From Escherichia virus TH15: a stretch of DNA of 64,000 bases. Of the stretch, positions 73 through 53,614 are shown piece after piece (positions within the stretch are counted from its first letter, which is position 1; every line of letters starts with the position of its first letter). The stretch lies in the sequence record MT446392.1. One strand, written 5' to 3'. Below the pieces are notes generated by a model that saw only the letters and a program-made list of their open reading frames with translations, had not been told where the DNA came from and did not search any database. Both the position numbers and the translations under genes were made by a program.

Positions 73-798
73 GTGACTTATAATACCTCCATGAACTTAA
101 AACAATTTATTGAAGAAAATCTTTTAACTAAAAATCCGAATAGACTAAACGGAAATTTATTTAAAAATGATTTAGAATTTGCAAAGAAATTTTGGGAAAA
201 ACATCCCGAGGAAGCAAATGCCTTTAGAGCAGAAGCACTGGAATGTCAGGGAGGTAAAAGAGAACAACATCCGTATAACGAGGTCTGTTATCGTATTTTA
301 CATGATATAAAAGGGAAAGTCCTGTGTAAGTGTGGCAAGCCTGTTAATTATCATACATTCGCGACCGGTTACCATGAATTTTGTTCAGTTAAATGCCAGG
401 GTGGTGGGGTATTTGAGGAAAAACGTATTTGCTCCATGTGTGATATTAAGTATACGGCGACTAATAGAACTCAAAAATATTGTTCAGATTCTTGTTGTCA
501 AAAGGCAAGGGATGCCAAATTGCTGGACTTATCATACAGTCATTCTATAAAGATGAAAAGACGGGATGTTCTGAAGTTAATTGAGGATACTCCGTATTGT
601 GAAATTTGTAAAATAAAACTAACAAACAATTCGTCTTCTTTATCAAAAAGCACTTGGTTCAATGTTGACCATTGTCACTCGACTGGTAAAGTCCGTGGTA
701 TTTTATGTTCAAAATGCAACATAGGACTAGGAATGTTTAAAGACAATATTGCTTCATTAGAAACCGCGATAGAATACTTGAAACAAAGCAAGGAATAA
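73..798 (+). CDS. Free-standing HNH endonuclease (endonuclease VII-type HNH motif, several Cys clusters)
   Basis: C-terminal motif VDHCHSTGKVRGILCSKCNIGLG resembles the T4 endo VII HNH core; multiple CxxC pairs. Track start 73 is GTG; first ATG at 91 has no clear SD. Confidence 0.6.
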   Translation: MTYNTSMNLKQFIEENLLTKNPNRLNGNLFKNDLEFAKKFWEKHPEEANAFRAEALECQGGKREQHPYNEVCYRILHDIKGKVLCKCGKPVNYHTFATGYHEFCSVKCQGGGVFEEKRICSMCDIKYTATNRTQKYCSDSCCQKARDAKLLDLSYSHSIKMKRRDVLKLIEDTPYCEICKIKLTNNSSSLSKSTWFNVDHCHSTGKVRGILCSKCNIGLGMFKDNIASLETAIEYLKQSKE

Positions 799-29471: not shown

Positions 29472-29843
29472 ATGATGGAAACTGGTAAATTTTATACATT
29501 AGACCCTGCTGCCAAAAAACAATTCATCGCTGGTAGTCCTGATGACAATTCGCGCATGGTCAAGCTGATGGGACAACATGGCAGTTCCTTCAAAGTCCTG
29601 GATATGTGCTATATTGATGGCGATTATTTTGTCGAAAAAGTTGAAATGAAAGATGGCACCATCCTTGATAGTATGGATGGTGCTGATGAGTACTTTGAAC
29701 TCGCTGAGTGGGAATTCCGTCACTTCCTGGAAGTGGATGAAGCTCCAGCTCCTGTTGTTGACACGCAAACCATTCATGTGCAAGTCAATCACAAAAATGC
29801 TGCTGAAGTCATTGCCCTGATTAAAGCTACCTTTGGAATTTAA
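29472..29843 (+). CDS. Hypothetical early protein (paralog family member A)
   Basis: GKFYTLDPAAKKQFIAG and DEYFELAEWEF shared with the ORFs at 30166 and 43181; own promoter cassette upstream. Confidence 0.5.
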   Translation: MMETGKFYTLDPAAKKQFIAGSPDDNSRMVKLMGQHGSSFKVLDMCYIDGDYFVEKVEMKDGTILDSMDGADEYFELAEWEFRHFLEVDEAPAPVVDTQTIHVQVNHKNAAEVIALIKATFGI

Positions 29844-30165: not shown

Positions 30166-30528
30166 ATGGAAATCGGCAAAAAATATGAGTTCAATCCACA
30201 TCGTATTAAATCTTTCATTGATATTAGTTCATCAAATGCTAATATGGTCGACATCATCCAAGAAAATGGCGGTTGGTTTGAAGTTAAATCAATATCAAGT
30301 GCAGACGGTTATGATTATGTAACCGAAGTCATTTTTGCTAATGGCACAATCTATAATGATGATGGTATGGGTGACGAGTATTTTGAACTTAGTGAAGAAG
30401 AGTTTTATTGCTTCCGCGAATACTCCAGTTATACAAAAACACCTTCAGGAGCGGTTTCTATTAATTGTGTTGTAGATGCTAATAACGTTGACCAAATCAT
30501 TGAACTTCTACAAAAAGCTTTCAAATAG
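30166..30528 (+). CDS. Hypothetical early protein (paralog family member B)
   Basis: GKKYEFNP...DEYFELSEEEF and C-terminal IIELLQKAF parallel the ORF at 29472; own GTTTAC/TATTAT promoter. Confidence 0.5.
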   Translation: MEIGKKYEFNPHRIKSFIDISSSNANMVDIIQENGGWFEVKSISSADGYDYVTEVIFANGTIYNDDGMGDEYFELSEEEFYCFREYSSYTKTPSGAVSINCVVDANNVDQIIELLQKAFK

Positions 30529-31127: not shown

Positions 31128-32903
<1,776 letters not shown>

Positions 32904-32904
<1 letters not shown>

Positions 32905-33107
32905 TGAATATTCGTATAGTAAACAATAGATACGGCACCCGTGAGGTGCTGTTTGAAAAAATGAATATAAGTCTCGATGAACTGCCTAAAGAGAAAACAA
33001 CGATTTTTGTTCAGGGTAAAGAACTTTATGTTATGCGTGTGATTAAATCATATGAATATCACGATTTAACCCAGCACCAGTCTATCTGGTTTATTGTCGA
33101 GGTCTAA
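32904..33107 (+). CDS. Hypothetical protein
   Basis: 67-aa ORF coupled to the td stop. Confidence 0.35.
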
Positions 33108-33168: not shown

Positions 33169-33468
33169 ATGAAAGCCTGTCGGGTTGTTAACAAATATCA
33201 ATCCGACTTTGATGTGAATATTCAACGGGGTACCATGTGGGGAAACCCATATAAAGATGGTACCCGAGAAGAAAACATAAAGAACTTTAAAGAATATTTC
33301 ATATCAAAGATTAAATCGGGTGAAATCAAAAGAGAACACCTTGAAACCCTACGCGGAATGCGATTGGCCTGTACATGCAAACCAAAAGCATGCCATGGCG
33401 ATGTTATCGCCCTGGTCGTTAACAAACTTTTCAAAGATACCTTTTCGCTCGAGGATTTGGGAGCATAA
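33169..33468 (+). CDS. Small conserved protein with CTC...CHGD motif (possibly DUF4326-like)
   Basis: 99 aa; RVVN...GTMWGNPY...LACTCKPKACHGDVIALV pattern recalled from DUF4326-type proteins; assignment from memory only. Confidence 0.45.
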   Translation: MKACRVVNKYQSDFDVNIQRGTMWGNPYKDGTREENIKNFKEYFISKIKSGEIKREHLETLRGMRLACTCKPKACHGDVIALVVNKLFKDTFSLEDLGA

Positions 33469-33527: not shown

Positions 33528-33773
33528 ATGAATTTACGATTTAAACGCCAGACTGGCGAAGTCATTTTTGAAATGCTGCAATTTACCGAACAGGATTTAC
33601 CGGCACCAAATTCTTATATCACTATTGACGGAATCAAATTTCTGGCCAAACGTCATGAACGTGTCTACTGTCATGATTCAGCCGGTGACGTCCAGTCATA
33701 TTTTGACATCACCATCCAGTCAGAAGAAGAATATAATGATGAAATGTCTTCGGAACTGCCAGAGTCAATTTAA
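33528..33773 (+). CDS. Hypothetical protein (acidic)
   Basis: ORF with GAGAGG SD. Confidence 0.45.
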   Translation: MNLRFKRQTGEVIFEMLQFTEQDLPAPNSYITIDGIKFLAKRHERVYCHDSAGDVQSYFDITIQSEEEYNDEMSSELPESI

Positions 33774-33806: not shown

Positions 33807-36062
33807 ATGCAAGTACAAAAAAGTAGTGGTGTCTCTCAAGATTTTGATGGCCAGAAAATTATTAAAGTTCTTTCCTGGTCATGTGAAGGAACTAATATCG
33901 ACCCGTATGAATTATACGAAACAATCAAACCACATCTGCGCGATGGTATGACTACCCGCGATATTCAGACGGTTATCATCAAAGTGTCTGCTGGGCTTAT
34001 TTCGGTCGAAGAACCGGATTATCAATATGTTGCAGCGAAGGCTACGATGTTTGCTCTGCGTAAAGATGTTTATGGGCAATTCGAGCCACGTTCTTTTATT
34101 GACCAGATTTCTTATTGTGTTAATGAAGGCAAATATGACCCGGAACTGTTGTCAAGCTACTCCGCCGAAGAGATTACTTATCTGGAATCTCGTATCAAGC
34201 ACGAACGCGATTTTGACCTGACTTATGCAGGCGCGATGCAGTTGAAAGAGAAATACCTGGTTAAAGATAAAACCACTGGTAAAATCTACGAGACTCCACA
34301 ATTCGCTATCATGGCTATCGGCATGGCACTGTACCAGGATGAACCAACGGACCGTCTGAAGCACATTTGCCGTTTTTATGATGCAGTATCCACAAGACAG
34401 GTTTCGTTGCCCACACCTATCATGGCGGGCGCCAGAACACCCACCAGGCAGTTCAGTTCCTGCGTGGTTATCGAAGCTGCAGACTCCCTGAAGTCAATCA
34501 ATAAGACTGCCAATTCAATCATCGAATATATCAGTAAGCGTGCGGGTATCGGCATCAACGTTGGTATGATTCGTGCTGAAGGTTCGAAAATCGGTATGGG
34601 TGAAGTTCGTCATACTGGTGTTATTCCGTTCTGGAAACATTTCCAAACGGCTGTTAAATCCTGTTCACAAGGTGGAATCCGTGGCGGCGCTGCTACTGCT
34701 TATTATCCTTTATGGCATTTGGAAGTTGAAAATTTACTCGTTCTGAAGAACAACAAGGGCGTTGAAGAAAACCGCATCAGACATATGGACTATGGTGTCC
34801 AGTTGAATAACATGATGATGGAACGTCTGGCTAAGAATGATTACATCACTCTGTTTAGTCCACATGAAGCTGGTGGTGAATTGTATTATTCATATTTTGA
34901 TAACCCGGATAAATTCCGCGAGTTATATGAAGCCTTAGAAAAAGACCCGACAGTTCGTAAGAAACGTATCAAAGCAAAAGACCTGTTCGAATTATTCATG
35001 ACCGAACGTTCCGGCACTGCCCGAGTTTATCCACAGTTCGTTGATAACGTGAATGACTATACTCCGTTCATCCGCGATAAGGCTCCGATTCGTCAATCAA
35101 ACCTTTGTTGTGAAATTGCAATCCCGACTACTGATGTAAACAGCGAAGATGCTGAAATCGGATTGTGCACATTGTCTGCATTTGTTCTGGATAGTTTTGA
35201 CTGGCAGGACCAAGATAAGATTAACGAGCTGGCTGAAGTTCAAGTTCGTGCTCTTGATAATCTGTTGGACTACCAAGGTTATCCGGTTAAAGAAGCTCTG
35301 AAAGCCAAAAAACGTCGCAACTTGGGCGTTGGTGTTACCAACTACGCTGCATGGCTGGCAAGCAATTTCGCTTCCTACGCCGATGCAAACGATTTAACCC
35401 ATGAATTATTTGAGAGATTACAATATGGCCTTATCCGAGCATCCATCAAGCTCGCCAAAGAAAAAGGACCTTGCGAATATTATTCAGACACTCGTTGGGC
35501 TCGAGGCGAATTACCTATCGACTGGTACAATAAAAAGATTGACCAAATCGCAGCTCCAAACTACGTTTGTGACTGGGCGCAGCTGCGGGAAGACCTGGTT
35601 GCACATGGCATCCGTAATAGCACCTTATCTGCGCTCATGCCTTGCGAGTCGAGCAGCCAAGTTTCAAATAGTACCAACGGTATCGAACCTCCGCGTGGTC
35701 CAGTAAGTATTAAGGAAAGTAAAGAAGGTTCCTTTAACCAGGTTGTTCCAAATATCGAGCATAATAAAGGATTGTACGATTACGCATGGGTACTGGCTAA
35801 ACAAGGTAATAAACCTTATCTGACTCAAGTCGCGATTATGTTGAAATGGATTTGTCAGTCAGCATCAGCAAACACTTATTATGACCCGCAGAATTATCCG
35901 AAAGGAAAAGTTCCGATGTCAGTTATGCTTGACGACTTGATGTACGGTTGGTATTATGGAATCAAGAATTTTTACTATCACAATACTCGTGATGGCTCGG
36001 GAACTGACGATTACGAATTGGAAATGCCAAAAGCTGATGATTGCTCGGCATGTAAACTGTAA
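33807..36062 (+). CDS. nrdA: Ribonucleotide reductase class Ia large subunit
   Basis: 751 aa versus T4 754 aa; ATP-cone N-terminus and catalytic-site motifs (NLCCEI, PCESSSQ). Confidence 0.95.
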   Translation: MQVQKSSGVSQDFDGQKIIKVLSWSCEGTNIDPYELYETIKPHLRDGMTTRDIQTVIIKVSAGLISVEEPDYQYVAAKATMFALRKDVYGQFEPRSFIDQISYCVNEGKYDPELLSSYSAEEITYLESRIKHERDFDLTYAGAMQLKEKYLVKDKTTGKIYETPQFAIMAIGMALYQDEPTDRLKHICRFYDAVSTRQVSLPTPIMAGARTPTRQFSSCVVIEAADSLKSINKTANSIIEYISKRAGIGINVGMIRAEGSKIGMGEVRHTGVIPFWKHFQTAVKSCSQGGIRGGAATAYYPLWHLEVENLLVLKNNKGVEENRIRHMDYGVQLNNMMMERLAKNDYITLFSPHEAGGELYYSYFDNPDKFRELYEALEKDPTVRKKRIKAKDLFELFMTERSGTARVYPQFVDNVNDYTPFIRDKAPIRQSNLCCEIAIPTTDVNSEDAEIGLCTLSAFVLDSFDWQDQDKINELAEVQVRALDNLLDYQGYPVKEALKAKKRRNLGVGVTNYAAWLASNFASYADANDLTHELFERLQYGLIRASIKLAKEKGPCEYYSDTRWARGELPIDWYNKKIDQIAAPNYVCDWAQLREDLVAHGIRNSTLSALMPCESSSQVSNSTNGIEPPRGPVSIKESKEGSFNQVVPNIEHNKGLYDYAWVLAKQGNKPYLTQVAIMLKWICQSASANTYYDPQNYPKGKVPMSVMLDDLMYGWYYGIKNFYYHNTRDGSGTDDYELEMPKADDCSACKL

Positions 36063-36790
36063 TGAATTATCAAAACATTTATAATAATTTAATATCCCGG
36101 GGTAAAACCCGGGAACCTTTAGCCGAATATAAAGAGATTCATCATATTATCCCAAGATGTATGGGTGGTACTGATGAAAAGACAAACCTTGTCGAGTTAA
36201 CAGCTCGAGAACATTTTATTGCTCATTTACTTTTATGCAAAATAAATCCCGGTCATTTTGGATTAGTCTCGGCCCTAACTTTAATGGCAACAGATAAAGC
36301 TGGAAATCGTATTAATAATAAATTGTATAGTTTCCATCGAAAGCTATTTGCCAAAGCAAATTCCGAATTCTTTAAGGAACACTGGAAAAATAACCCACAC
36401 CCCCGCGGTATGTTGGGTAAGCATCACAGTGAAGAATCTAAACAAATTGTAAGCGAAAAGAATAAGTTAGCTGTTCCATCTACAGAAATTTATCAATTTA
36501 CTCTCGATGGTGAATTTGTTGAAAAATTTAGGTCATTACAAGAGGCGGCGAGGACTGTAAATGGAAACGCGTCAAACATCAAGTATTGTGCAAGTGGAAA
36601 ATTTCAATATGCGTATGGATTTAGATGGTCATATTCGCTTCAACCCACATTTGATAAAATAACTCCACGACAATATAAAGGTGCCCGTGGTAAAATCTGT
36701 ATTAATGACGGGTTTACAAATAAATTAATTGAATCCTCTGAAATTATCCCCGATGGATGGGTCAGAGGAAGGATAAAGGTTAATAAATGA
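36062..36790 (+). CDS. HNH homing endonuclease (mobE-like, free-standing between nrdA and nrdB)
   Basis: HHIIPRCMGGTDEKTNLVELTAREHFIAH HNH motif near the N-terminus; C-terminal DNA-binding-type repeats; same location as T4 mobE. Confidence 0.7.
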   Translation: MNYQNIYNNLISRGKTREPLAEYKEIHHIIPRCMGGTDEKTNLVELTAREHFIAHLLLCKINPGHFGLVSALTLMATDKAGNRINNKLYSFHRKLFAKANSEFFKEHWKNNPHPRGMLGKHHSEESKQIVSEKNKLAVPSTEIYQFTLDGEFVEKFRSLQEAARTVNGNASNIKYCASGKFQYAYGFRWSYSLQPTFDKITPRQYKGARGKICINDGFTNKLIESSEIIPDGWVRGRIKVNK

Positions 36791-45105: not shown

Positions 45106-45405
45106 ATGATTTTAACTGAACAAGAAACAATTCGTCTCCGTGAAAAAGTCAAGACTATCTTGTCTGTTGGCTTTCACGAAGTTCTGTTTGAAAAAGCAGA
45201 TGGCAGCATCCGTCGTATGACTTGTACTCGCGACCTGGACCTGCTGCCGTATAAAGAAATCCAGGCCCCTGGGCCAGAAGCTAGTAAAGAACCGGTTAGC
45301 TATATCCGGGTATTTGATACCAAGCTTAATGAGTGGCGTTCATTTTGTTTCAATAAATTGGTTTCTGTGAATGGATTACAGACCGAGACTCTGCTCGTCC
45401 TTTAA
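45106..45405 (+). CDS. Hypothetical protein
   Basis: 99-aa ORF. Confidence 0.45.
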   Translation: MILTEQETIRLREKVKTILSVGFHEVLFEKADGSIRRMTCTRDLDLLPYKEIQAPGPEASKEPVSYIRVFDTKLNEWRSFCFNKLVSVNGLQTETLLVL

Positions 45406-48198: not shown

Positions 48199-48411
48199 AT
48201 GTTTAAGAAACTGATTCAGAAAATTTTGGGAACAGAAATGGTTGAAGTGACTTATCGCGTGACTGACGTAAGTCCATGGGCCCGAAATACTGAACCATAT
48301 ACTAAAACAATTAAAATGCTGAAATCTGACGGCGGATTATCTATTAAAGACCGTCTACCTGGTTATGGTCATTGGGCTGATGTAGATATTATCAGTGTCA
48401 AAGATGTCTGA
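48199..48411 (+). CDS. Hypothetical protein
   Basis: ORF with GAGGA SD. Confidence 0.35.
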   Translation: MFKKLIQKILGTEMVEVTYRVTDVSPWARNTEPYTKTIKMLKSDGGLSIKDRLPGYGHWADVDIISVKDV

Positions 48412-48862
48412 GTTAGAAATCAGAAGTAATTTTCCGTGGCCATCATGTGCATTAAGCAACTTTGCTAAATGGCCTTTTGTTATGGAGGGTATCCAGTTTG
48501 GAGGTCTTGAAGGCTTCTTACAAGGGTGCAAGGTGAGAAATCATGAACAACAAAAACGTATATTTGGGATGTCCGGATTGGCCGCCCAGCAAAGTGGAAG
48601 AGCTTATGCAAGAGCTGCGGACCGTGGGACGCTTTTCTGGCTTGGAATTCCCTTTTCAAGATACTCTGCAGCATGGAAAGAGTTGTATACAAATGCATAT
48701 TTTGAAGCAGCGCTCCAGAACCAAGGATTCCGCGATGCGTTACAATCCACAAAAGGCAAAGTTTTAAAGCATTCGATGGCGAGTCACCTTACTGTTCATG
48801 ATACAATATTGACTGAACAAGAATTTATTGACATACTTAACCAATTGAGAGATGCATTATGA
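48404..48862 (+). CDS. NADAR-like (YbiA/DUF1768-like) protein, candidate ADP-ribose-processing enzyme
   Basis: SNFAKWP followed by E-x-F-x-Q-x-x-K resembles the NADAR signature recalled from E. coli YbiA (FSNFAAWP ... SEHYFQAQK). Track start 48395 is GTG. Confidence 0.5.
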   Translation: MSELEIRSNFPWPSCALSNFAKWPFVMEGIQFGGLEGFLQGCKVRNHEQQKRIFGMSGLAAQQSGRAYARAADRGTLFWLGIPFSRYSAAWKELYTNAYFEAALQNQGFRDALQSTKGKVLKHSMASHLTVHDTILTEQEFIDILNQLRDAL

Positions 48863-51562: not shown

Positions 51563-53614
51563 ATGTCTGAACAATTAAATGAACTCTTTGACAAATATAT
51601 CGAAACCTTCGGTTATCCTGTCATTAATATGAATCCAAAATACAAGGTCCCACAGGTTTGGCAATTCGGTGTTCCTGGGACCAATTCTCTTATGGCCCGT
51701 TTGATGCAATTCACGGGCAAAGAAACAGTTAAACAATATAAACGTGGTGATGCAATTGCCGAGGTATTCCTGCTCTCCGGGACTTCACACGGTCATGCTG
51801 TTCCTCTGAAGGGTGGCCTAGGTGAAAAACCTCTTGATGCGATTAACCTGATTTTTACCACAGTCTGGGAAAGTATCAAACTAGGCAAACCTGATGTAGT
51901 CTTGTTCCGTTTCCCCTCCAAAAAGATGAAAGGTCAAGAGCAAGCTGTTATTCGTATTATGAATCGACTGATTCAAATGAAAACTTCCGGGCGTTATCAT
52001 GTTCTTCCGAATGCATCTGGTCTCGGTAAAAAGAACGCTTATGTAATTATGTACAAAAAGGGTGTTGACCTACTGTCGGTTGATGGTATGCCTCCAGTCC
52101 CTGAGAAATATCAAAAAGTCACAACAAAAGTTGGCGACGTATTCACCAATAAAGATAACGGTGCACAAGTCTCCAAACAAGAAATCGCAGCCGAAGTTCT
52201 GATTGATGCCGCAAACAAAAAGACCGATGCTTCTGTTGCACAGAAAACTAAAATCAGTCGCCGAGCTATTGCACAAGCCCAGTATGCACCAAATGAGAAT
52301 GTCCCAGAAGGTTGGGATGAAATTGATGCAGAAGCTGCTAAATTTAGTCGACCTGCGACTGCTGAATTAATTGATGATGCCGAAGAACTGGAAATTTTTG
52401 TTCGACCTTCTGAAACGAATACTATGGCACGTATGCGCGCAGCAGATATGGCTATGCGAGCAAATGGTGTTTGGAAAGAAGAAATTCGTGTTGAAGACAC
52501 TGACCCAATTTTTAACCGTATGCACCGTGAACTTAAACGTGCTCCAGTCGGCAGTATGAAGCAGATGCAGATTTTTGCCGAATCATGTGCAGAAATTCTT
52601 AACCTTCGTAAAGCTGCATTTATCGAAAGAAAAATGAATGATGCTCCCCCTAACCTGGATGCAGCCACTTATGCAGCCACGCTCTGGGAAGAAGAATACA
52701 CAAGCGCCATTCGTGTTGCAGTTAAAGACTTTGCCGAAGAAGCATCAGAAAATACTCTTAATTTCACAGCAGGGTATACTGACAACCGTTTCCATTATGG
52801 CCAGCGAGAAGCAATTGCAGATTATTGTGGAGCAAACTATGTCGATATTAATAATTATTTGATGGGTAATTATTATGAAGAAGATGCTGAATTCCTAAAT
52901 CTGGACAGAGTTGTCGAAACAATTAAGGAATTGGATTCGGCCTTTGAAATTGGACATAAGTTGCCACCCGATACAACTCTTTGGCGTGGTCAATATTTAA
53001 ATGTTCCTACATTTAATAAAATTAAGCAATCGAAATTATTTTATTTCAGGAACTATGTATCAACGTCGTTTAAACCGATTATCTTTGGTGGCTGGGTGGC
53101 GAACGTTGCTATGGCCGCAGTTCATCAGGACTATCGTGATGGGACATCTTTCCAGGCTGATGACGAAATTGTTTTACCAAATATTCCGGGTGCAAACCCA
53201 GATAACGCAATGATTCATGTTGGTTGGAAAATTTCTGGGGCGGACTTAATTAACGTAATTGTTCCCGGCGAATTGTCAGGAAACCCGACCGAGCAAGAAG
53301 TTATTCTTCCTCGTGGAACTATAGTTAAGATTACAAAGATTACGGATGCGTCGTATCAAGGAAATGCGAACGTCAAAATGCTGGAAGCGGATATCCAGAC
53401 CACTGACCAACTGGATGAAAATGCAGTTATCTATGATGGTGATGTGTTGATGGAAACTGGCGAGCTTGTCGTTTATAAAGGCGAGGAACCAGAAGAATCT
53501 GTTGACTTCGCATCGTTTGCATCCTCCAGGGTGACGAAGAAAGTCAACCAAGGCCTTGGTATTCTTGCTAGTTGTATTAATTTGGAAAGTATTCCTCCTA
53601 AATTCCTTTCATAG
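51563..53614 (+). CDS. alt: ADP-ribosyltransferase Alt-like (virion-packaged ART)
   Basis: 683 aa versus T4 682 aa, adjacent to ligase as in T4; late promoter upstream; C-terminal ART-type R / STS / ExE motifs (FRNYVSTSF, EQEVILPRG). Confidence 0.75.
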   Translation: MSEQLNELFDKYIETFGYPVINMNPKYKVPQVWQFGVPGTNSLMARLMQFTGKETVKQYKRGDAIAEVFLLSGTSHGHAVPLKGGLGEKPLDAINLIFTTVWESIKLGKPDVVLFRFPSKKMKGQEQAVIRIMNRLIQMKTSGRYHVLPNASGLGKKNAYVIMYKKGVDLLSVDGMPPVPEKYQKVTTKVGDVFTNKDNGAQVSKQEIAAEVLIDAANKKTDASVAQKTKISRRAIAQAQYAPNENVPEGWDEIDAEAAKFSRPATAELIDDAEELEIFVRPSETNTMARMRAADMAMRANGVWKEEIRVEDTDPIFNRMHRELKRAPVGSMKQMQIFAESCAEILNLRKAAFIERKMNDAPPNLDAATYAATLWEEEYTSAIRVAVKDFAEEASENTLNFTAGYTDNRFHYGQREAIADYCGANYVDINNYLMGNYYEEDAEFLNLDRVVETIKELDSAFEIGHKLPPDTTLWRGQYLNVPTFNKIKQSKLFYFRNYVSTSFKPIIFGGWVANVAMAAVHQDYRDGTSFQADDEIVLPNIPGANPDNAMIHVGWKISGADLINVIVPGELSGNPTEQEVILPRGTIVKITKITDASYQGNANVKMLEADIQTTDQLDENAVIYDGDVLMETGELVVYKGEEPEESVDFASFASSRVTKKVNQGLGILASCINLESIPPKFLS

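Follow-up and report, generated by a model that had tools for sequence, protein, structure and literature searches.

Phage T4 carries between td and nrdA a small gene, nrdA.1, whose product (NP_049846.1) and its Straboviridae orthologs share a DUF4326 domain; it is one of many conserved T4-type phage genes of no known function, and the domain itself is very widespread. For the family as a whole, the Aravind group has predicted a rhodanese-phosphatase clade that processes terminal ribose phosphates in adenosine diphosphate (ADP)-ribose or its breakdown products (PMC9503650; PMC7824862). Here, the corresponding gene was analysed in Escherichia virus TH15 (sequence record MT446392.1), within a stretch of 64,000 nucleotides that is referred to as the window and whose positions are used throughout. 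The open reading frame (ORF) called at 33169-33468 on the plus strand runs from ATG to TAA and encodes a protein of 99 amino acids, with the sequence MKACRVVNKYQSDFDVNIQRGTMWGNPYKDGTREENIKNFKEYFISKIKSGEIKREHLETLRGMRLACTCKPKACHGDVIALVVNKLFKDTFSLEDLGA. By sequence, it is the Gaprivervirus ortholog of phage T4 nrdA.1 and a stand-alone, single-domain DUF4326 protein, which shares with T4 NrdA.1 and the Straboviridae orthologs its size, its position between td and nrdA, and its domain. The gene is thus a known one, its family has a name and the functional idea has been in print since 2021–2023, so that nothing new in kind is described. With a probability of roughly 45%, and on the basis of sequence comparison and modelling, we propose that the protein is a minimal phosphatase-fold enzyme acting on phosphorylated ribose, with a substrate derived from nicotinamide adenine dinucleotide (NAD) or ADP-ribose, or a nucleic-acid end.

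The protein is 100% identical to its counterpart in phage UPEC07, from which the coding DNA differs by 13 synonymous and no non-synonymous codon changes, all at third positions, which marks the ORF as a real gene under purifying selection. The DNA of the region is 98.5% identical to that of Escherichia phage vB_EcoM_VR26 (VR26), a T4-like phage of the genus Gaprivervirus whose copy of the gene carries the annotation 'similar to bacteriophage T4 NrdA.1'; the annotations of Sf21 and Slocum likewise name T4 NrdA.1. At the protein level, identity amounts to 98% with the VR26 copy and to 67–68% with those of Tequatrovirus, and the td–nrdA interval also holds nrdA.1 in VR26, UPEC07 and Sf21. Sf21, which belongs to T4's own genus Tequatrovirus, has the order td-nrdA.2-nrdA.1-nrdA, whereas the window has td-ORF67-nrdA.1-nrdA.2-nrdA, in which ORF67 is a small ORF of 67 residues; moreover, NrdA.1 of Sf21 reads WGNYVG where the window protein has WGNPY.

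An initial annotation made from the letters of the window had assigned the ORF to DUF4326, and this assignment proved right: a hidden Markov model search with Pfam DUF4326 (PF14216) returned E=7e-22 and a score of 78.3 bits, the cutoff being 25, and covered profile positions 1–81 of 82. The 99-residue ORF with the strings RVVN, GTMWGNPY and LACTCKPKACHGDVIAL, which that annotation had cited, is present as described, as is its location between td and nrdA. All the signature residues of the family (VVN, I-x-R-G, W-G-N-P and C-x-C-x-P-x-x-C-H-G-D) are found in the ORF, which also matched PHROG 464 ('unknown function') with E=4.6e-45, while NCBIfam and PADLOC hold no model for the DUF4326 protein itself. 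A match to phrog_24867, labelled 'ribonucleotide reductase NrdA-like' (E=6e-7), was rejected as most likely a naming artefact of the neighbouring gene, not homology.

The family is large. A profile search of 1.84 billion cluster representatives, clustered at 50% identity, yielded 17,836 matches at E<=0.001, and a homolog was detected with tblastn in 2130 of 50,697 phage records (~4%) from many genera; DUF4326 also occurs in giant viruses, bacteria and archaea. Within PF14216, the window protein represents the minimal, single-domain form, whereas ~30% of the best 150 representatives are longer and multidomain. In an alignment of 54 relatives, N8, D15, I18, G25, N26, C68, C70, P72, C75, H76 and G77 were invariant, and R20, P27, K73 and D78 nearly so. 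The exact C-x-C-x-P-x-x-C-H spacing was retained in 265 of 270 family members, followed directly by G-D in 250. Some relatives contain two or three tandem DUF4326 domains, as in proteins of 352 and 1411 residues; in the latter, the first two signature cysteines are replaced (ACADGECHGE), a possible sign of an inactive or altered copy. The gene and its conserved segments are located as follows:

33169..33468, plus strand: coding sequence of the 99-residue NrdA.1-type DUF4326 protein, stop codon included (ORF call, PF14216, VR26 annotation, and codon changes relative to UPEC07).
33184..33192, plus strand: codons of V6-V7-N8, at the end of the first beta-strand, with N8 invariant (54-relative alignment, and DSSP strand 5-8 in an AlphaFold2 model).
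33226..33249, plus strand: codons of R20-G-T-M-W-G25-N26-P27, the 'RG..WGNP' loop (alignment, with G25 and N26 invariant and R20 nearly so; GNP in 230 of 270 members).
33370..33402, plus strand: codons of C68-T-C70-K-P72-K-A-C75-H76-G77-D78, the signature loop between strand and helix, a putative active or metal site (sequence read directly, motif count, model, and alignment with DUF488).

The AlphaFold2 model, computed with 54 sequences, is a compact alpha/beta domain (predicted local distance difference test score of 94.2, predicted template modelling score of 0.85) with a strand at 5-8, a short bridge at 16-17, helices at 33-50 and 55-59, a strand at 65-68, a helix at 76-87 and a short terminal helix. 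In the secondary structure of this model, strand 65-68 ends at C68 and is followed by loop 69-75 and then by helix 76-87, which places a cysteine at the active-site position of rhodanese-type phosphatases. The polar, near-invariant residues (N8, D15, R20, G25-N26 and C68-x-C70-x-P72-K-x-C75-H76-G-D78) are found at strand ends and in this strand-to-helix loop. Foldseek comparison of the model with the Protein Data Bank (PDB) gave no match below E=0.6, and sequence searches against solved structures, with the single protein and with a profile, returned chance matches only, namely ComFB at E=0.29 and designed TPR proteins matching 'GN.Y..G...EAI..Y'.

The fold was also approached indirectly, by way of DUF488 (PF04343). 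A broad DUF4326 alignment of 278 domains, compared with DUF488 in hhalign, gave a score of 30.4, P=1.6e-4 and a probability of 50%; the 53 aligned columns begin at the long helix and reach the end, and they pair C68 with Cys, C70 with His, P72 with Pro, C75 with Cys and H76 with His. The 33 controls (reversed, DuOB, mSLOG and 30 column-shuffled alignments) all scored <=18.2; with shallow alignments the probability was 6%, the comparison being informative only with the broader DUF4326 alignment and with controls. Both families thus share C-x(1,2)-[CH]-x-P-x-x-C-H between a strand and a helix, with a similarity of the C-terminal halves above controls. They differ in that DUF488, with C-x-x-H-x-P-x-x-C-H-R, has an arginine after C-H where DUF4326 has Gly77, and in that DUF488 is larger (~145 residues), with additional strands and helices; furthermore, a DUF488 model gave clear phosphatase-fold matches, whereas that of DUF4326 gave no clear ones. 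Taken together, the DUF488 signal above controls, the phosphatase-type fold of DUF488 and the position of the signature loop in the model support, moderately and indirectly, the published placement of DUF4326 in the rhodanese-phosphatase fold group together with DUF488 and the C-terminal domain of RapZ (RapZ-C). Burroughs and Aravind, in 2023, reportedly defined a RapZ-C/DUF488/DUF4326 clade.

The same loop also supports the main rival explanation, which we deem unlikely: C68, C70, C75 and H76 would form a site for zinc or another metal, and the protein would be a metal-dependent hydrolase or a non-catalytic module binding nucleotides or nucleic acids, rather than an enzyme with a cysteine-phosphate intermediate. 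The tetrad is exact in the 265 members mentioned above. At the position of C70, DUF488 has a histidine that hardly ever varies, and it keeps the remaining Cys, Pro, Cys and His of the signature. Such a Cys/His swap, as read from the aligned sequences, is a typical feature of metal ligands, and a simple cysteine-phosphatase model does not account for it. In addition, the arginine of a Cys-x5-Arg loop is missing, and there is a weak local likeness to the cysteine-rich segment of ComFB, both in the solved-structure search (PDB 4WAI, at the E value given above) and in NCBIfam (E=0.0054, far below the cutoff of that model). ComFB is a zinc-binding protein, and post-SET domains bind zinc through a C-x-C-x4-C arrangement. 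Conversely, adjacent residues such as C75 and H76 rarely ligate the same ion, the other invariant polar residues (N8, D15, R20, N26 and D78) point to a substrate pocket and not to a purely structural site, and DUF488 has a phosphatase-type fold.

What the substrate of the proposed enzyme might be is suggested by the domains that accompany DUF4326 in other genomes. The initial annotation had held that such domains are sometimes found with ADP-ribose-processing ones, and this agrees with the Pfam content of 52 multidomain relatives, which included YAcAr-SLOG in seven, mSLOG in four, DprA-type SLOG in three (the SLOG counts may overlap) and NADAR in one, as well as single fusions to a Dam methylase, an RNase H, a family A DNA polymerase and a phage-type RNA polymerase. 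According to a 2025 preprint, homologs of ORF83, a SLOG-like anti-Avs protein, carry a C-terminal DUF4326 domain in amoeba viruses. The tie of the family to ADP-ribose and nucleotide domains is thus real, is already in print (Iyer/Burroughs/Aravind 2021, 2022) and was reproduced here.

Among bacterial and archaeal loci, for which one genome per species was used and the best 80 loci were taken, 45 encode a protein of ~200 residues with an N-terminal mSLOG and a C-terminal DUF4326 domain. The gene for this protein comes third and last in a conserved cassette, DuOB-DUF488-mSLOG-DUF4326, in which DuOB stands for dual-OB: the DUF488 gene lies directly upstream in 39 of the 45 loci and DuOB upstream of DUF488 in 43, while the flanks of the cassette are unrelated between loci. 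In PADLOC, the first two genes, DuOB and DUF488, are entered as PDC-M45, a candidate defence system, with no model for the third gene, and literature searches found no papers for PDC-M45. Of 5426 complete E. coli genomes, 13 contain the cassette, two of them in full length and 11 with 60% covered at 82-86% identity. In the copy of E. coli AP027759.1 (4339-6034 of the stretch examined), the cassette has overlapping genes and is flanked by a resolvase and an integrase; the C-terminal domain of its mSLOG-DUF4326 protein is 51% identical to the phage protein and carries the same motif. The bacterial domain is fused to SLOG, and its gene is translationally coupled to those for DuOB and DUF488 within a small mobile island, whereas the window gene stands alone, with DuOB, DUF488 and SLOG partners not detected.

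From these observations we infer a chemistry and a substrate as follows. Within the tyrosine-phosphatase/rhodanese-type fold group, to which DUF488 and RapZ-C belong, DUF4326 would be a minimal and derived member, with its Cys/His loop at the position of the phosphate-binding loop of those enzymes. A pocket would be built from the strand ends (N8, D15), the RG..WGNP loop and the Cys/His loop; phosphorylated ribose would bind there, and its phosphate would be removed or transferred. The substrate would be a nucleotide derived from NAD or ADP-ribose, or a nucleic-acid end, a class proposed because SLOG, NADAR, DUF488 and DuOB recur as partners. In other genomes, SLOG, NADAR, Macro, DUF488 and DuOB partners would make or handle such substrates. 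In this phage, the DUF4326 gene would be expressed together with the early genes of nucleotide metabolism, and no such partner was detected in its vicinity, so that its product would act on a host-derived or pool metabolite, for salvage or counter-defence.

Several observations weigh against this proposal. The Cys-x5-Arg phosphate-binding loop is absent: loop C68-T-C-K-P-K-A-C-H-G is longer, with Gly77 where DUF488 and RapZ have arginine. RapZ-C (PDB 5O5S/5O5Q) has the canonical loop C-T-G-G-K-H-R-S and lacks the two extra cysteines of DUF4326, and comparison with the C-terminal sequence of E. coli RapZ was not significant (E=0.34 and 0.75). RapZ-C itself is a sensor that binds glucosamine-6-phosphate, and it is not known to have enzymatic activity. 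PTEN, the dual-specificity phosphatases (DUSPs) and laforin, which have the tyrosine/dual-specificity phosphatase fold, differ from DUF4326, as the latter lacks Cys-x5-Arg, has a longer loop, conserves three cysteines and one histidine, and spans only ~85 residues. The Cys-Cys-Cys-His tetrad, together with the Cys/His swap in DUF488, looks like a metal site and not like a thiol nucleophile. NADAR, Macro and SLOG were not found among ~40 window ORFs scanned in four Pfam batches, some at E up to 10; the gene contexts of DUF4326 in phages are heterogeneous, with no dominant partner; and the literature searched contained no biochemical or genetic experiment on any DUF4326 protein.

Two further readings have to be considered here. 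In the first, the stand-alone phage DUF4326 would be a counter-defence enzyme with a catalytic centre of a new kind, Cys3-His and possibly metal-dependent, on a minimal phosphatase fold, undoing a phospho-ribosyl or ADP-ribose-derived product or a nucleic-acid-end modification of host systems; we regard this as rather improbable. One such host system could be the DuOB-DUF488-mSLOG-DUF4326 cassette, given the identity of its DUF4326 domain to the phage protein. In the second, the protein would be a truncated relative of NADAR (PF08719; PDB 8BAU, 2B3W), that is, a glycohydrolase removing ADP-ribose from bases or cleaving N-glycosidic bonds. A weak structural similarity speaks in its favour, yet the window protein matched no NADAR profile, there is no sequence-family match between the two and the C-terminal signature differs; we consider this reading very improbable.

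The initial annotation had further envisaged that the gene, together with Alt and a NADAR-like gene, forms part of an extended ADP-ribosylation toolkit. In this form, the protein would work with Alt, and with ModA and ModB, for instance to trim or recycle what ADP-ribosylation of protein or RNA yields; we consider this very unlikely. Alt is real (51563-53614; ADPrib_exo_Tox, E=3e-19), and the published predicted link of the family to ADP-ribose derivatives would fit. However, Alt lies 18 kb and ~30 ORFs downstream, in ordinary T4 synteny and without adjacency. The NADAR-like gene was not recovered, either in the Pfam scan of ~40 ORFs or with phmmer, in which E. coli YbiA matched none of the window ORFs of at least 40 residues; this query, a hand-entered sequence, did detect the NADAR part of a fusion relative. 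Gene gp30.3 (48395-48862) matched its own family only, with no match among solved structures. Moreover, DUF4326 homologs occur in many phage groups of widely differing gene content. A Pfam survey of 33 diverse viral contigs, covering two neighbours to either side, found no ADP-ribosyltransferase among the 25 most frequent neighbour families. In N4-like viral contigs, the DUF4326 gene lies in the early region, two genes from a SLOG gene in one case and four genes from a faint Macro match in another. The local partnership with Alt and NADAR found no support.

The immediate neighbourhood of the gene in the window belongs to nucleotide synthesis (frd, td, nrdA, nrdB) and not to ADP-ribose metabolism, with the order frd-td-ORF67-nrdA.1-nrdA.2-like-nrdA:

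32044-32904: td, thymidylate synthase, upstream of the DUF4326 ORF.
32904..33107, plus strand: ORF of 67 residues directly after td, a distant paralog of the NrdA.2-like gene (BLASTP).
33528..33773, plus strand: NrdA.2-like gene (DUF5496), which usually accompanies nrdA.1 in T4-like phages (Pfam E=1.4e-8, VR26 annotation, and BLASTP E=2e-13 to Sf21 NrdA.2).
33807-36062: nrdA, large subunit of ribonucleotide reductase, downstream of the DUF4326 ORF.

The 67-residue ORF matched both the 33528-33773 product and Sf21 NrdA.2 in BLASTP with E=1e-4 and had no match in the Pfam scan, and nrdA.1 is thus located between two related small genes. In VR26, the annotated counterpart of this ORF is shorter, with 48 residues. 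A scan for promoters and terminators found nothing useful beside the DUF4326 gene, and promoter sites were no more frequent than in shuffled sequence.

This location invites another explanation, in which the protein would be an accessory of deoxynucleotide synthesis, either a redox-active thiol protein or a small regulator of ribonucleotide reductase or of the deoxynucleotide-synthesizing complex; we judge it rather unlikely. The gene is retained in the td–nrdA interval of T4-like phages, and in the unrelated Klebsiella jumbo phage K64-1 (3462-3809 of the stretch examined) it lies between nrdD, accompanied by a small glycyl-radical ORF, and the activase gene nrdG. The nrdD-DUF4326-nrdG arrangement also appears in further Alcyoneusvirus-type jumbo phage loci, which makes it a second, independent adjacency to a reductase. 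ThyX and IMPDH/GMP-reductase-type genes are found among the viral neighbours, and three cysteines are conserved, as might suit such a role. Most family members, however, lie away from reductase genes: within the transfer RNA (tRNA) cluster in a T5-like phage, after an SbcCD-type nuclease in Kuttervirus, and in other phages near a tRNA-His guanylyltransferase, an RNA ligase, or rII genes with a polynucleotide kinase, in addition to the N4-like early regions and the DuOB/DUF488 cassettes. Counts in the neighbour survey were low, with the anaerobic reductase found two to three times and T4-type RNA ligase, NAMPT, PhoH, DuOB with DUF488, and an IMPDH-type gene twice each. The recurrent fusions involve SLOG and not reductase or thioredoxin-type domains, and the 'NrdA-like' label in PHROG most likely stems from the name of the neighbouring gene. 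What the viral contexts share is an early auxiliary region for the metabolism of nucleotides, NAD and RNA ends, rather than any specific ADP-ribosylation module.

Other features of the window were recorded in passing. Between nrdA and nrdB, a 242-residue ORF (36062-36790, plus strand) with HNH and NUMOD1 domains, of the homing-endonuclease type, overlaps the end of nrdA; in VR26, nrdB follows nrdA directly, with no gene in between. The ORF looks like a mobile endonuclease insertion, and its position is comparable to that of T4 mobE. A 241-residue ORF at the start of the window (73-798, plus strand), with a C-terminal Endonuclease VII domain (E=5e-18), may be a further mobile nuclease gene. Upstream of frd, two paralogous genes of the FRD2 family are found at 29472-29843 and 30166-30528, both on the plus strand (Pfam E=7e-33 and 5e-36, respectively). 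Finally, in the region from cd to gene 31, a 99-residue ORF (45106-45405, plus strand) matched WYL_2, an Sm-like SH3 barrel, with E=3e-11; in defence contexts, domains of the WYL type frequently serve as ligand sensors.

For this window, the result mainly confirmed the annotation of the gene. If the proposed activity on phosphorylated ribose is correct, nrdA.1 would add an enzyme class to the conflict between phages and hosts over NAD-derived molecules and would help to explain the candidate bacterial system of DuOB, DUF488, SLOG and DUF4326. Were the counter-defence role to apply, T4-like phages would carry a captured copy of the last enzyme of a host immune module.

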